Source: a virus
Taxonomy: Duplodnaviria; Heunggongvirae; Uroviricota; Caudoviricetes
Virus record (IMG/VR): IMGVR_UViG_2778261568_000005
Length of the DNA: 5,022 nt
Direction: 5' to 3' (one strand)
Made by a program: the position numbers and the translations under genes. The notes under the pieces were generated by a model. That model was not told the origin of the DNA, did no database searches, and was given only the letters and a program-made list of their open reading frames with translations. Positions 419 to 5,022 of the stretch are shown piece after piece (the stretch's first letter is position 1; the number at the start of each line of letters is the position of its first letter).

Positions 419-492
419 AGCCTCACCTCCGCGAATAACGGATGGTGTACACGGTTTGGAATGAAAGAGGGAAAGATACAGAAGTTACATTA

Positions 493-524
493 GAAAAGAA
501 AAACGCCAGCGATTATTCTGGCGT
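493..524 (-). terminator. Rho-independent terminator downstream of the AraC-family gene (minus strand)
   Basis: 7-bp stem ACGCCAG (503..509) / CTGGCGT (518..524), 8-nt loop, followed on the minus strand by UUUUCUUUUC (plus 502..493). Sits about 60 nt after the AraC stop and about 75 nt before the holin start. Confidence 0.6.
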
Positions 525-585
525 AGCTGAAAGCATCATATAATCATCAAATATGAAAATTACAAAATCATCAAAACGCATCACG

Positions 586-1317
586 TTACATCTTGCCTTT
601 TTCTAAAAAAAATCTTGATGAATATTCATGGGGGGGAACACCAAAATATCTTCTGAAAACACTTATAAAATATGACGCGCTTTCATAACCACATATTTTA
701 GCAACTTTCCCAACAGGATAGAAATTGTAGCTTAATAACCTTTCAGCCATCACCATTCGTTCTTCAAGAATTAATTTGCTAAATGATAAGCCTTCGTGTT
801 TTAGTTTTCTTTTTAACAAACTTTCACTCAGACATAGTCTTGAAGAAATATCACAAAGTCTCCATGCTGCAGATATGTCCGAGTGAATAATAGCCTTAAC
901 TTTGCTTCCTAAACTATTAAGACACCCAAACAAAAAACTCTGAAACATTTTTTCCGAGGATAAAATAGCAAGACATGCAAATAATATTGAATTTTTAACT
1001 ACAGCCGTAGTTTCACCATCACAATTCAAGCAACCTATCAAGTTCTTTAACAATGAATAGTCTGTACAGTTTACTATCAAGTATGCTGAATAAAATCTTC
1101 TTACAGAAAAAGGTGAGAGTGTATTGTTTTTAAAGAAGTCATTAACTGTTTTCTCTTCAATATCCACGATCATTATATTATCTTTATTTGAAGAAAAGAA
1201 AACTTTTAAATTGTATTCTATAGCAACAACACTTCCTTTTTTTAGAGAGATTTTTTCTTTACCAAGCCGGATATCAAACGAGTTCAAAACCAAAATGATA
1301 GAACATATGCATGGCAT
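586..1317 (-). CDS. AraC/XylS-family transcriptional regulator (about 243 aa), AT-rich, probably horizontally acquired
   Basis: ORF-track protein carries a C-terminal AraC-type HTH signature (...GYESASYFISVFRRYFGVPPHEY...) with overall architecture like the Rns/AppY/GadX group. I place the start at ATG 1317..1315 because a GGTGG Shine-Dalgarno precedes it by 5 nt; the ORF track's start at 1326 is a GTG lying inside that SD. Base composition is visibly AT-rich by eye. Confidence 0.8.
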   Translation of the reverse strand: MPCICSIILVLNSFDIRLGKEKISLKKGSVVAIEYNLKVFFSSNKDNIMIVDIEEKTVNDFFKNNTLSPFSVRRFYSAYLIVNCTDYSLLKNLIGCLNCDGETTAVVKNSILFACLAILSSEKMFQSFLFGCLNSLGSKVKAIIHSDISAAWRLCDISSRLCLSESLLKRKLKHEGLSFSKLILEERMVMAERLLSYNFYPVGKVAKICGYESASYFISVFRRYFGVPPHEYSSRFFLEKGKM

Positions 1318-1326
1318 ACCATCCAC

Positions 1327-1635
1327 CTGACATAATTAGATTTGAGTTAAGTAAGTATAGGTGGAAATATTAAAATTGCCATATTTTCAATGAGAAAAAT
1401 CTCATTATATCATCATGAACTTTGATATTTTCTTTAAAATATTTATGTAATACTAGATTAAACAGAACTATTTTTGGCTTGCTTGATTATTAATCATTAA
1501 TTAACATATTAACATTACCTTAAGCATGAACCGAATTTTTTTACAAACTGTACAACTATAGATATCATAGTGAAGTTTTTACGATTGTAAACATTCTCTA
1601 AGGAGAAAATCATCTTGTTGGTGCATTCCAAACGC
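1327..1635 (-). promoter_or_regulatory. AT-rich intergenic/leader region, candidate promoter for the AraC-family gene
   Basis: About 310 bp of very AT-rich non-coding DNA between the YbgA-like stop and the AraC start. On the minus strand an extended -10 element TGaTATAAT maps to plus 1412..1404, with no convincing -35. AT-rich tracts with palindromic TTAATTAA-type motifs (about 1486..1510) are typical of H-NS-bound xenogeneic promoters. Assignment is by eye only. Confidence 0.3.
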
Positions 1636-2595
1636 CTAGTTCACCAAGAGTCTTAGAGCCAGTTCATCAGGATAGGGGTGGAAGTAATTCTGTATAAGCA
1701 AATAATCATCAGGATACTCTGCCAAGTAATGCTTCAGCAAAGTTAATGGCGCAAGAAGAGGTAGCGTGCCAGCTCGATAGTTAAGTATAACATCGCTCAA
1801 CTCTTTACGCTGACGTGTATTTAAGCAGTTACTAAAATATCCCTGTATATGCATCAGCACATTCGTGTGATTTTTACGTGATGCAGGTTTTCTGAGAATC
1901 GCCATCAGCTTCTCACGATACACCTCAAAGTATGATTCAAGGTCTGCCCACTCATGTATTGCAGCCACAAATGGCCCCATCTCTTTATAACCGGCCTGGC
2001 TATGCGCCAACAACTGAAGCTTATAACGGCTATGAAAAGCTAATAATTCCCTTCTTGATAATTTCGCTTTATAAAGATGATTGAGCTCATGTAAAGCAAA
2101 TACTCTTTCAACAAAGTTTTCACGAAGCACTGGATCATGTAGTCGCCCATCCTCTTCAACCGGTAGCCAGGAAAACCTTTCCATCAACGTGCTCGTAAAT
2201 AGTCCCACTCCATCTTTACGACCACGATTACCATTTTCATCATATACACGCACGCGTTCCATACCACAGCTAGGAGATTTTGCACAAACCACAAATCCCG
2301 ATACATCCTTTAATTTGTCAAGATAAGAACGACTAAACTCTGTCATTTTCTCTGTAACATCCTCATTCTGGTCGTGGCTGAAACACATCCGTATATTTCC
2401 TTGCGCCGAGCGAACAAGACGTAGAGCAGGACGCGGAACTGGAAGCCCTATAGCCATTTCCGGACATACTGGTTTGAATGTTACCCATTCCAGTAATTTG
2501 TCCATTAAAAAGCTAGCTCTTTTGTGACCACCATCAAAACGGACAGAAGAACCGGCCAAACAACCACTGATCCCAACGACAGGTTTTTTTATCAT
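1636..2595 (-). CDS. DUF523 (TudS-like, putative [4Fe-4S] thio-nucleobase desulfidase fold) fused to DUF1722 (YbgA-like), 319 aa
   Basis: ATG at 2595 preceded by an AAGGGG Shine-Dalgarno. N-terminal half has the conserved cysteines in DUF523-like contexts (GISGCLAG, KPVCPEM, AKSPSCGM); C-terminal half resembles the DUF1722 domain of E. coli YbgA. Domain assignment is from recollection of the family motifs, not from an HMM search. Confidence 0.7.
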   Translation of the reverse strand: MIKKPVVGISGCLAGSSVRFDGGHKRASFLMDKLLEWVTFKPVCPEMAIGLPVPRPALRLVRSAQGNIRMCFSHDQNEDVTEKMTEFSRSYLDKLKDVSGFVVCAKSPSCGMERVRVYDENGNRGRKDGVGLFTSTLMERFSWLPVEEDGRLHDPVLRENFVERVFALHELNHLYKAKLSRRELLAFHSRYKLQLLAHSQAGYKEMGPFVAAIHEWADLESYFEVYREKLMAILRKPASRKNHTNVLMHIQGYFSNCLNTRQRKELSDVILNYRAGTLPLLAPLTLLKHYLAEYPDDYLLIQNYFHPYPDELALRLLVN

Positions 2596-2787
2596 TGCCT
2601 ACCCCTTGACTAATTCATTAACAGGTTAACAGTGTAGTACACGACCTAAACTGCCTTTCTGCCGTCATCACTGACAATTTTTTTGTTATGGACTATTCCT
2701 AATATAGTAGGAAAGTTCTTTAAGTGATCGGTAGTAATCATCTATCTTTAATACTTACTCTCAACTATCAAAAGTACAGGATATATT
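2596..2787. promoter_or_regulatory. Divergent intergenic region between the YbgA-like gene (minus) and the lipocalin gene (plus)
   Basis: 192 bp non-coding spacer between two divergently oriented start codons, each with a plausible SD (AGGA 7 nt before ATG 2788; AAGGGG before ATG 2595). It must contain both promoters; no individual hexamers could be assigned with confidence. Confidence 0.35.
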
Positions 2788-3312
2788 ATGAAGTTATGGC
2801 CTGTGTTGACTGGCATTGCACTCTCTTTCACTCTGATAGCATGTAAGGCCCCGACACCACCTAAAGGTGTGCAGCCGATTACAAATTTTGACACCAACCG
2901 CTACCTCGGAAAATGGTATGAAATAGCTCGGCTTGAGAACCGATTTGAACGTGGTCTGGAACAGGTCAGCGCCACTTATGGGAAACGGAACGACGGAGGG
3001 ATTAGTGTACTTAATCGTGGATATGACCCAACGAAAAACAAATGGAGCGAGAGCGAAGGTAAAGCATACTTTACAGGAGATAATACAACTGCAGCGTTGA
3101 AGGTTTCGTTTTTTGGCCCCTTCTATGGTGGCTATAATGTAATCAAACTGGATGATGAGTATAAGTATGCTCTTGTCAGTGGTCCGAACAGAGAATACCT
3201 ATGGATTCTGGCACGGACTCCAACTATTCCAGATAATGTAAAAGCAGACTATGTGCGTACTGCTCAAAAATTGGGATTCAATGTCAATGAACTATTATGG
3301 GTCAAACAATAA
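2788..3312 (+). CDS. blc: Bacterial lipocalin, outer-membrane lipoprotein of the Blc family, 174 aa
   Basis: Translation aligns along its length with my recollection of E. coli Blc: signal peptide ending in a lipobox (TLIAC), then ...NFDTNRYLGKWYEIARLENRFERG...SEGKAYFTGD...ALKVSFFGPFYGGYNVI...YLWILARTPT.... Opposite strand to all phage genes. Confidence 0.85.
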   Translation: MKLWPVLTGIALSFTLIACKAPTPPKGVQPITNFDTNRYLGKWYEIARLENRFERGLEQVSATYGKRNDGGISVLNRGYDPTKNKWSESEGKAYFTGDNTTAALKVSFFGPFYGGYNVIKLDDEYKYALVSGPNREYLWILARTPTIPDNVKADYVRTAQKLGFNVNELLWVKQ

Positions 3313-3340
3313 AATACCTAACCGGATTGATACTTATTAG

Positions 3341-3368
3341 AAAAAAAACCAGCCTTTGGGGAGGCTGG
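3341..3368 (-). terminator. Strong rho-independent terminator downstream of Q (tR'-like); may also stop the convergent lipocalin transcript
   Basis: Stem CCAGCCT (3349..3355) / AGGCTGG (3362..3368), 6-nt loop, followed on the minus strand by eight U (plus 3341..3348 is A8). About 100 nt downstream of the Q stop, as expected for the terminator that Q-modified polymerase reads through. On the plus strand it is preceded by the A-tract and not followed by T, so termination of blc would be weaker. Confidence 0.7.
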
Positions 3369-3468
3369 CTAAATCAGGGAACAAGCTGTTATATGATCAT
3401 AACTACGTTGCGATTCTAACATTTGAAACATTAGTCTAATGATAACCAGACAGCAACTTTTCCTTTAA
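3369..3468 (-). promoter_or_regulatory. Candidate late promoter (pR'-like) and Q-utilisation region between Q and the terminator
   Basis: Position is the canonical one for pR'/qut in lambdoid phages. On the minus strand: candidate -35 TTGCTG (plus 3456..3451), 17-bp spacer, -10 TAATGT (plus 3433..3428), and a further -10-like hexamer TAGAAT (plus 3418..3413) in the initial transcribed region that could act as a sigma-dependent pause element. The exact hexamers are my inference and not a match to a remembered sequence. Confidence 0.4.
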
Positions 3469-3846
3469 TTATCTCAAACAATCAGCATCCATCTCCAATC
3501 TGAGATCCAACACCATCAGCATGCCCTCCACTACGCCCTCAGCTTTTTGGAGCATCCTGCCAATCCAACAATCAGATCTACCATGCTTACGCGCAAGCGC
3601 CATAAAAGTCATGCCGCCGACATAATAGTCCACTAACAAATCATGCAAATCGCTGTTGTTATTTTTCAGACGGGCCATGCACCCGCAAATGATCATCGCG
3701 TCATCGTCACAACATTGCGGGCGAGATTTTACTTTTGAAGGAATTAATCCCTTAAAACCGGCGGCAATGGACGACCAGGTCACATCTTCATGATTATTAG
3801 CCGCCCACGCTCCCCAACGCTCAAGAACCATCTGAATATCACGCAT
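3469..3846 (-). CDS. quuD: Late-gene antiterminator Q (phage 82/21 QuuD-type), 125 aa
   Basis: Translation [34 protein letters not shown]...[17 protein letters not shown]... matches my recollection of DLP12 QuuD / Q82. I use ATG 3846..3844 (GGAG SD 7 nt upstream); the ORF track's start at 3861 is a TTG adding 5 residues. Confidence 0.85.
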
Positions 3847-3931
3847 CAACTTACTCCACAAAAATCAGACCAGAACGCCAATTACAAGCAAAAATCAGCA
3901 AAACAGTATTAGTTGATTGTTATCTCTGACT

Positions 3932-4069
3932 TCATACTCCTGCTCCTGTCAGTGTTTTGGCGTAATTCTTCAGTATTCGGTAATCGGTCAAAACAGAACC
4001 GGGGAAACGATATAAGCGCAGACGCACCCAGCGGTGGCGAAGACGTTCTGCCATATAAAACTCAAACAT
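3932..4069 (-). CDS. ylcG: Small nin-region protein YlcG-like, 45 aa
   Basis: Not in the ORF track (below its length cut-off). Manual minus-strand translation from ATG 4069..4067 gives [45 protein letters not shown], stop TGA at 3934..3932. Its start overlaps the rusA stop by 1 nt. Size and position between rusA and Q match ylcG of DLP12; the sequence identity itself is inferred from synteny. Confidence 0.6.
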   Translation of the reverse strand: MFEFYMAERLRHRWVRLRLYRFPGSVLTDYRILKNYAKTLTGAGV

Positions 4070-4431
4070 CATTCATTCCCCATTTCGGTGATGGTCAATT
4101 CCAGCCTCCCACCTTTGGTAACAGGCATCTTCACAACGCGGTAATCAACGACCTGAGCATCATCCAGCCAGAAACCTGCTTTGGTGAGTGCGTCAAAAGC
4201 GGCTTTTTGCAGATTATCCAGGTCACGGCGACGGCGATCCGGCATGTGGCACTCAATGCGGATTTTCACAGGCATCGCCAGGCCGATATCCAGCATTGCG
4301 TTTTTAATGATTCGGGCGACGTTATCGCGGTATGCCTGCCCCTCTGCGCTGACGTGCGTGCGCCCGCGATTATGGCGATAATAGCGATTATTGCTCGGAG
4401 GCCAGGGTAGTGTGATGTGGTAAGTATTCAC
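4069..4431 (-). CDS. rusA: RusA Holliday-junction resolvase, 120 aa
   Basis: Translation [120 protein letters not shown] is essentially the E. coli RusA sequence as I recall it. Start codon is GTG (plus 4429..4431 = CAC), overlapping the upstream ybcO-like frame stop as GTGA. Confidence 0.92.
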
Positions 4432-4556
4432 GCCTTAATTACCCCCTCTTTCAGCCAGATAACCTGCGTTCTCGCCATACCTTCCCGCGCGCATTCTTTT
4501 GCATATGCAGCATCGACTTGCTTGGCATGCCCTTTACCGGCAATCTTCTGTATGCG
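4428..4556 (-). pseudogene. ybcO: ybcO-like (DUF1364, putative nuclease) 3' remnant, N-terminally disrupted
   Basis: Minus-strand frame ending at TGA 4430..4428 translates to ...[29 protein letters not shown], matching the C-terminus of DLP12 YbcO as I remember it, with the stop overlapping the rusA start exactly as in the ybcO-rusA arrangement. Upstream the frame is closed by TAG at 4559..4557 and 4565..4563, and the only in-frame ATG (4478..4476) would give 16 aa. YbcO is 96 aa as I recall, so this looks like a truncated remnant. Confidence 0.4.
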
Positions 4557-4637
4557 CTAAACCTAGATAGAATCCACTCTGTGCACATTGAAGCCCGCTC
4601 TATGCTTCCTTTCAGGTATTGAAGGGATTGAGATGGG

Positions 4638-4940
4638 CTAAGCATTATTGGCCTCCTGCATCAGGAGAAAGACAATAATGGCGGCGCGGAGAGGTCTGGT
4701 ATCAAATATTGGGCTTACGCCTTTTGCATCCACACACCATTCAGTTAACTGGTCTAAGATAGAAATCCTGTATTTCTCAATAATCGGCCATGAAGCGCTC
4801 GGATCATTGCAGTAGTCAGGCAAATGATTTAATGGCTCAAAAGTTGTATCAGCATTTCCGTAATACCATTTGTTGGTGTTATTCCCTGATGTTTCCGGTT
4901 TACTTGCCCAAAGGCCTTTAAAAATTATGTCTCCTACCAT
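4638..4940 (-). CDS. Hypothetical protein, 100 aa, unknown function
   Basis: Uninterrupted ORF from ATG 4940 to TAG 4640..4638 with reasonable codon appearance, sitting where ninE/ybcO would be in DLP12, but I do not recognise the sequence. No Shine-Dalgarno upstream of the ATG (an AGGAG lies just inside the ORF), and a stable hairpin ends 6 nt before the start, so the start is uncertain. Confidence 0.4.
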
Positions 4941-4946
4941 TCTGTG

Positions 4947-4978
4947 TAAGCGTCAACGGAGCACCGTATTGACGCTTA
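4947..4978. other. Perfect 10-bp inverted repeat / hairpin between the upstream gene end and the 100-aa ORF
   Basis: TAAGCGTCAA (4947..4956) and TTGACGCTTA (4969..4978) are exact reverse complements around a 12-nt spacer that itself pairs (CGG...CCG). On the plus strand it is followed by TTTATTGG, so it is terminator-like for plus-strand transcripts; on the minus strand it lacks a U-tract. The stop codon (plus 4976..4978) of a minus-strand frame entering from the right edge lies in its right arm. Confidence 0.5.
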
Positions 4979-5022
4979 TTTATTGGTGAGTACTACGTTC
5001 CATGGCAGGAGTTCGTCAACTC

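Follow-up and report, generated by a model that had tools for sequence, protein, structure and literature searches.

The window analysed here, a 5,022-nucleotide stretch of DNA from the IMG/VR virus record IMGVR_UViG_2778261568_000005, carries at positions 2788–3312, on the + strand, a gene for a Blc-type lipocalin lipoprotein that is probably a functional lysogenic-conversion ('moron') gene of lambdoid coliphages. The product belongs to a second enterobacterial lineage of Blc proteins, for which we use the name Blc2 in this analysis; the lineage linked to ampC and sugE, which includes the Blc of Escherichia coli, is referred to as Blc1. The open reading frame (ORF), from ATG to TAA, codes for 174 amino acids and matches Pfam PF08212 (Lipocalin_2) at 2.2e-43 (148 bits, with a cut-off of 24) as well as the NCBIfam profile for 'outer membrane lipoprotein Blc' (NF007786; 315.5 bits, the cut-off being 267; residues 1–174 on a 176-position profile). 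The three E. coli Blc structures 3MBT, 1QWD and 2ACO align to residues 16–174 without gaps (1e-68 to 5e-68), and the assignment of the product to the Blc family is far beyond chance. The lipocalin GxW motif is found as G41-K42-W43 and, at about 63% identity to the solved structures over the mature region, the protein is predicted to form an eight-stranded barrel with a C-terminal helix. The window protein is identical to gp65 of phage 1H12.

The original prediction, made from the letters of the window, had assigned to this Blc-type lipocalin a lipobox signal peptide of its own, and both elements are borne out. The N-terminus is MKLWPVLTGIALSFTLIAC, followed by a Lys after the lipobox Cys19; thus, a type II signal peptide can be read directly from the translation (2788–2844, +), with the lipobox L16-I17-A18-C19 encoded at 2833–2844 and a Lys at +2. 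The position of Cys19 is common to all of the Blc1 and Blc2 relatives. In Gram-negative bacteria, a +2 residue other than Asp sorts a lipoprotein to the outer membrane. By these standard rules, the phage Blc would be exported by Sec, lipidated on Cys19 and cleaved by signal peptidase II, and, because its +2 residue is Lys and not Asp, the Lol pathway is expected to carry it to the outer membrane, on the side that faces the periplasm.

The gene is part of a phage. The genome that matches the window most closely is that of E. coli strain Q65, where the region lies within a complete lambda-like prophage integrated beside icd; the region was found in 12 isolated phage genomes and is 99.9–100% identical to isolated lambda-like coliphages, including 1H12, Lambda_2E9 and ev203. 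All of the recognisable flanking genes, for NinX, RusA, Q, RudS, an AraC-like regulator, holin S and the start of the lysozyme gene, are on the − strand, so that blc, on the + strand, converges on Q and opposes late transcription, in line with the orientation given in the original prediction. The gene for the antiterminator Q occupies 3469–3846 (−; alternative end 3861; Pfam Phage_antitermQ at 2.5e-51, and phage annotation), and the first lysis gene, coding for a P21-type holin S, is found at 203–418 (−; Pfam Phage_holin_2_1 at 3e-35). Phage ev243, whose Q and lysis genes are the same, shares with the window, by BLASTN, only positions 1–429 and 3487–4945; between its Q and S genes it holds an ompC-type porin gene, likewise opposed to the late genes. 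The presence of a porin in place of the blc block in ev243 indicates that the lipocalin gene sits in a variable cargo slot between Q and S, the variable segment relative to ev243 being 430–3486 (BLASTN and the ev243 annotation). An ompC/nmpC-type porin also replaces the blc block in other sister phages, in which Q and the lysis genes are likewise the same. Thus, as in other morons, the DNA is inserted between conserved phage modules and is missing from close relatives.

Among 80 viral loci retrieved from IMG/VR, the order holin (−), AraC-like (−), RudS (−), Blc (+), Q (−) was found in 73, and the remaining seven are truncated subsets in the same order. The identical three-gene block (AraC-like, rudS and blc) is also present in DLP12-type and Qin-type prophages. 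Full-length blc of the phage type, at a nucleotide identity of at least 90%, was found in 1042 of 5426 complete E. coli genomes (19%). A match to the blc query was obtained in 5372 of the 5426, and in those that are not of the phage type the match is to the chromosomal gene alone, with a nucleotide identity of about 68%. Strain Q65 keeps an intact ampC-blc-sugE region, at 4,440,296–4,440,829, besides the prophage gene, and blc was found in two places in all six of the phage-type-positive E. coli records among the matches listed. The prophage blc is an extra copy and the host's own blc is retained; the prediction of an additional Blc lipocalin carried as prophage cargo therefore stands, and it would have been undone by a host with no other blc.

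In calling the gene a related copy of Blc, the original prediction was right as to the family, but E. coli blc has not been duplicated here: the gene codes for a distinct paralogue, at about 60% identity. The window protein is 59.8% identical to E. coli Blc and 60.9% identical to the Blc encoded on CMY-2 plasmids, and 80–82% identical to proteins of Cedecea, Leclercia tamurae, Enterobacter nematophilus and an uncultured relative (from a metagenome); over the chromosomal Blc2 proteins as a whole, identity ranges from 74 to 82%. In neighbour-joining analysis, the phage clade, with three alleles, was recovered in 300 of 300 bootstrap replicates, as was a Blc2 clade that includes it; the ampC/sugE-linked Blc1 proteins of E. 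coli, Citrobacter, Salmonella and others were separate (298/300). The phylogenetic placement that had been proposed as a check thus groups the window gene with the chromosomal Blc2 of other genera (Cedecea, Leclercia, Enterobacter nematophilus). Both its clade and its neighbours, rudS and Q rather than ampC and sugE, show that it is not orthologous to E. coli blc. Buttiauxella izardii has Blc1 and Blc2 types in one genome, and in Scandinavium a Blc2 gene and more distant lipocalins are found in different assemblies, from which we conclude that Blc1 and Blc2 are paralogues. No blc copy of intermediate identity was found among the 5426 complete E. coli genomes, so that the prophage supplies a type of lipocalin that E. 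coli is otherwise without. The G+C content at third codon positions is 0.39 for the phage blc and 0.37 for the phage rudS, whereas their closest relatives have 0.68, and the synonymous sites have reached saturation; hence, either the capture of blc and rudS is old or the donor is unsampled.

Two further observations concern the lipocalins of these genera. A third enterobacterial group (Enterobacter sp. CC120223-11, Scandinavium sp. UTDF21-P1B), with proteins that are 56–59% identical and begin their mature part with ACRSPGLP at the N-terminus, falls in neither Blc1 nor Blc2 but branches outside the two, so that up to three Blc-like paralogues may be present in some Enterobacteriaceae. In Scandinavium sp. 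V105_16, about 1.7 kb separates the chromosomal Blc2 cluster (locus positions 7001–10431) from the 3' end of icd, and icd is also the integration site of the window-type prophage in E. coli Q65 (locus positions 38869–41375). This proximity could be a clue to the first encounter of a phage with these genes; it may also be a coincidence, since the cargo is in the Q-S slot and not beside the attachment site.

The lipocalin gene is accompanied by a partner gene that it also has on chromosomes. Chromosomal Blc2 genes are divergent from a gene for a MerR/MlrA-like regulator, and a gene for a 319-amino-acid TudS+DUF1722 protein, rudS, closes the far side of the locus. We compared the layouts of nine chromosomal Blc2 loci; eight named genera are represented, together with one metagenome contig. 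In Leclercia, E. nematophilus and the metagenome contig (L006) the order is rudS, transthyretin-like, MlrA-like, blc; in Buttiauxella and Raoultella it is rudS, MlrA-like, blc; and in Huaxiibacter it is rudS, transthyretin-like, blc, without the MlrA-like regulator. Klebsiella variicola and Scandinavium have the longest arrangement (rudS, DUF3833, a gene of unknown product, DUF2878, CFA-synthase-like, DUF1365, amine-oxidase-like, SDR, SnoaL, MlrA-like, blc), and Cedecea has the DUF2878-to-SnoaL set followed by MlrA-like and blc, the rudS end lying beyond the locus covered. In the window, rudS (1636–2595, −; Pfam 2-thiour_desulf plus DUF1722, annotated as 'YbgA family') is divergent from blc and separated from it by a spacer of 192 bp, the phage block being the minimal form, rudS then blc. 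The phage block thus shares with the chromosomal loci both the Blc2 clade and the divergent RudS gene, the phage RudS being 71–74% identical to the chromosomal partners. No MerR/MlrA-like gene is present in the window, in which the spacer runs directly to rudS. Among some 50 non-enterobacterial lipocalin loci, neither RudS nor MlrA-like neighbours were found within 4 kb, bar one weak match. We suggest that the phage-borne Blc2 derived from a chromosomal locus of this kind, of which only the end genes, blc and rudS, would have been kept, back to back, with loss of the regulator.

The window RudS is identical, residue for residue, to H3V29_gp66 of phage 1H12, the 'RudS_vir' of Jamontas et al., which lowers the 4-thiouridine (s4U) content of tRNA when expressed in E. 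coli (PMC11417400). According to that study, E. coli itself lacks both RudS and TudS; the lipocalin is not mentioned there (PMC11417400). The rudS gene is co-oriented with the late operon; for this reason, read-through mediated by Q should also express rudS during lytic growth, which could be relevant after induction by ultraviolet (UV) light.

The phage alleles of blc are under purifying selection. Between the window and the DLP12-type allele there are 20 synonymous and five nonsynonymous changes, corresponding to rates of 0.19 per synonymous site (dS) and 0.012 per nonsynonymous site (dN) and to a dN/dS of 0.065; between the window and the Qin-type allele dN/dS is 0.09. Between phage alleles, rudS has a ratio of about 0.11 and the AraC-like gene one of 0.26. 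To evaluate the ligand pocket we used the 19 residues within 4 Å of heme in the co-crystal of E. coli Blc (PMC8177097). Of these, 18 are identical in the phage protein, the other being K77R, as compared with 58.8% identity at the remaining mature positions (Fisher p = 0.0012). With a pocket that is nearly identical, the barrel of the phage Blc should bind the hydrophobic ligand class of E. coli Blc.

Being on the strand opposite to the late operon, blc needs a promoter of its own. The rudS-blc intergenic region (2596–2787; 192 bp from the ORF coordinates) is presumed to hold the promoters of both genes. Alignment with relatives identified two conserved blocks in this region. Block 1, CCTAATATAGTAGGAA (2698–2713, +), which contains TATAGT, has CTCAATATACTACGAAT as its aligned counterpart before the chromosomal Blc2 genes of at least nine genera, where the surrounding DNA has diverged, and is a putative promoter or operator element. 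Block 2, AATACTTAC (2750–2758, +), a candidate −10 element about 30 nucleotides before the ATG, aligns with CACTACACTTAA/TTT (CTACACTTAA) in the Blc2 relatives, where we take its counterpart to fit the σS −10 consensus CTAYRCTTAA; it is the one feature that may point to induction of blc under stress or in stationary phase. A Shine-Dalgarno sequence, AGGA (2778–2781, +), is found 6 nucleotides before the ATG and is invariant in 12 Blc2 upstream regions. From the conserved blocks, use of a dedicated blc promoter is plausible. A scan of the spacer with the σ70 consensus returned one weak match, on the − strand (2764–2737). The palindrome TTCCTA-N6-TAGGAA in block 1 was considered as an operator and rejected, as it is not kept in the second phage allele, and a search of the intergenic region for inverted repeats returned only an AT-rich palindrome over the start codon. 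In a search for LexA boxes (CTGT-N8-ACAG), as a link to UV and the SOS response, none was found in the rudS-blc spacer; the single match with one mismatch lies inside rudS and is no more than expected by chance.

At the other end of the gene, the original prediction had blc ending at a terminator shared with the late operon, and this part is not upheld. The G+C-rich hairpin is real (3347–3370, between the blc and Q stop codons), but its U tract is on the − strand only. The terminator scan and folds of both strands identified an intrinsic, tR'-like terminator (3341–3370, −; a 9-bp stem followed by U8), about 100 nucleotides downstream of the Q stop codon and 36 nucleotides beyond that of blc, which the scan called on the − strand only. 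In the fold of the + strand RNA, the same stem has A8 on its 5' side and, on its 3' side, CUAAAUC instead of a U tract. The hairpin is best read as the tR'-type terminator of the late operon, overridden by Q. A candidate late promoter with an extended −10, TGTTAGAAT, was read from the sequence downstream of Q (3413–3421, −) and is kept in the second phage allele. The − strand sequence CATATAACAG (3386–3394 of the window) is at the same relative position in ev243; downstream of Q, the blc-type and the porin-type phages share almost nothing but ATATAACAG, about 14–19 nucleotides past the candidate late start. We presume that ATATAACAG may be a −10-like element that pauses the polymerase for Q loading, as in phage 82. 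With this arrangement, in a repressed lysogen the short transcripts from the late promoter would halt at the tR'-like terminator before reaching blc, which could then be expressed from its own promoter. After induction, the Q-modified polymerase would pass the terminator and run antisense through blc, possibly shutting it off, and then sense through rudS and the AraC-like gene to S and the lysis genes.

Several observations weigh against a functional conversion gene that benefits the lysogen. The regulator of chromosomal Blc2 is missing from the phage block. The consensus scan found no σ70-type promoter on the + strand upstream of blc, and the argument for promoter use draws on the two conserved blocks only. 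Neither the terminator scan nor the RNA fold detected a + strand intrinsic terminator 3' of blc, which is therefore not a textbook self-contained moron. The conserved pocket itself suggests biochemical redundancy with the Blc of the host, hence a doubt about selective benefit. Moreover, neither the physiological role nor the native ligand is settled even for E. coli Blc, the ligand being lysophospholipids or fatty acids in earlier work and heme or another tetrapyrrole more recently (PMC8177097).

We have also considered that blc is a passenger, the selected cargo being rudS and/or the AraC-like gene, with blc kept by adjacency and by the shared promoter region. RudS_vir has a demonstrated activity that E. 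coli lacks, blc and rudS would have been inherited jointly from the chromosomal locus, and the pocket of the host's own Blc is almost identical. However, at a synonymous divergence of about 0.19, purifying selection is stronger on blc (0.065–0.09) than on rudS or the AraC-like gene; in addition, blc is intact in all of the 80 IMG/VR loci retrieved and no truncated allele was seen among those examined, so that we regard a mere passenger as rather unlikely. A different possibility is that the lipoprotein serves the phage, by masking or modifying a receptor to exclude superinfecting phages, as do T5 Llp and the Cor proteins. The surface-altering porins held by sister phages in the identical slot, the morons of these lambda phages, which are mostly membrane proteins and include a superinfection-exclusion gene and bor/iss, and the independent presence in a Morganella phage of a 51%-identical lipocalin gene next to the lysis genes are all in keeping with such a role. 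It is nevertheless improbable in view of the nature of the protein, a conservative representative of a lipocalin lineage of the housekeeping kind: its ligand pocket is unchanged, and in many genera its linkage group is chromosomal, not phage-borne; furthermore, Blc is described as facing the periplasm and not the cell surface (PMC8177097).

That the gene could be the chromosomal blc of the host in a misjudged context, or a recent duplicate of the ampC-linked blc of the host or of a plasmid, draws on the common family and on the known movement of blc with ampC on plasmids. It is refuted by the position of the gene between Q and S, in a complete lambdoid prophage at icd and in isolated phage genomes, by the ampC-blc-sugE region elsewhere in the same strain, Q65, and by its placement in a different clade (300/300), with an identity of only about 60% to the E. 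coli and plasmid proteins; we give this reading practically no weight. A functional conversion gene of lambdoid coliphages thus remains the reading that we favour.

The phage gene may be compared with several known systems. It resembles the E. coli Blc of ampC-blc-sugE in family, length, lipobox Cys19, gap-free alignment and 18 of the 19 pocket residues, and differs from it in clade (Blc2 rather than Blc1), in its neighbour (rudS rather than ampC and sugE) and in G+C content (43.6% as compared with 53.6% for E. coli blc). With the chromosomal Blc2 genes of Leclercia, Enterobacter nematophilus, Cedecea, Klebsiella variicola, Scandinavium, Buttiauxella, Raoultella and Huaxiibacter it shares the clade, a RudS gene transcribed away from it and the upstream blocks. 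It has none of the genes that separate blc from rudS on the chromosomes, where a MerR/MlrA-like regulator is often joined by a transthyretin-like gene or by a lipid-modification cluster with as many as eight members. The blc found by blaCMY-2, on plasmids with a Citrobacter-derived ampC-blc-sugE, is likewise a Blc-family gene on a mobile element of E. coli; however, it is of the Blc1 type, 89.8% identical to E. coli Blc, and it hitch-hiked with ampC instead of being phage cargo. The porin genes of the Q-S slot (nmpC/ompC/ompD; DLP12, ev243, ev099, ev017) share with blc the slot, the opposed orientation and an envelope protein as the product, but belong to a different protein family, and blc comes in a three-gene block of which two genes are in the direction of the late operon. 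As with the lambda morons bor/iss and sitABCD, the cargo is absent from sister phages. Finally, Morganella phage IME1369_01 also has a gene for a lipocalin lipoprotein in a temperate phage and near the lysis genes (locus positions 5001–5516); there it has the lysis genes on one side and the gene for the small terminase subunit on the other, reads in their direction and has no rudS partner, and its product, 51% identical, looks like an independent acquisition.

The third cargo gene, for an AraC-family regulator (586–1317, −; Pfam HTH_18 and HTH_AraC), lies between rudS and holin S. It is AT-rich (31% G+C), and its best NCBIfam matches are the acid-resistance regulators YdeO and GadX, both below the cut-off. 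The gene, present in 73 of the 80 viral loci, looks like a separate addition to the cargo, and its product may be one of the prophage-borne AraC-like regulators such as AppY. The terminator scan also detected a − strand terminator (503–524), 3' of the AraC-like gene and upstream of holin S. Towards the other end of the window, a DUF1364 (ybcO-like) remnant is found between rusA and ninX (4428–4517, −), annotated as a partial pseudogene in Q65. The last 78 bases of the window (4945–5022) match the end of the IS66-family insertion sequence ISEc23, which adjoins ren in Q65; in the window, this end abuts a shortened ninX, so that the source prophage appears to have an insertion-sequence-associated deletion of ninE through ren and may perhaps be defective. 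Lastly, a 2.1-kb contig assigned to a Saccharibacteria metagenome-assembled genome (Candidatus Nanosynbacter sp.) carries a phage-type blc, 97% identical, beside the Q gene of the window, which is 98% identical there; in all likelihood a fragment of an E. coli prophage was mis-binned.

The occurrence of blc as prophage cargo is already known and ordinary in kind, and it does not represent a novel type of system: Mathieu et al. 2020 (PMC6969025) counted blc among the common lambda morons, present in over 50% of 19 lambda phages from the infant gut, the GenBank records of 1H12-like phages annotate the gene as 'Lipocalin Blc', and mobile blc genes are also familiar from ampC-carrying plasmids. 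In a literature search, we found no paper on the expression or phenotype of the phage blc, nor one linking it to RudS. What is added here is the assignment to Blc2, the inherited pairing with the characterised RudS_vir and the conservation of the pocket. Together, these suggest a testable, if improbable, link to near-UV or photo-oxidative stress, in which Blc2 and RudS would form a two-gene protection module derived from a light-responsive (class II LitR-like) enterobacterial locus. We so label the locus because the Klebsiella and Scandinavium cluster resembles, in gene content, the light-inducible class II LitR cluster of Pseudomonas (PMC9758184; PMC11417400); no photolyase gene was found beside rudS in Leclercia, the gene there coding for an AAA-ATPase. 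Lambdoid phages would have taken the pair, leaving its repressor behind, and disseminated it in E. coli, to which neither gene is native; RudS would erase s4U, a tRNA base sensitive to ultraviolet A, and the lipocalin would sequester photosensitising tetrapyrroles or photo-damaged lipids in the periplasm. We hold such a module to be doubtful; if it exists, it could benefit the lysogen, or the phage itself after UV induction.

The block, present in about one in five sequenced E. coli genomes, is among the commoner lambdoid cargo, and a gene that was previously only listed as a moron now has a concrete, testable hypothesis attached to it. Our observations also suggest that the published work on phage RudS should consider the divergent partner of rudS, blc.

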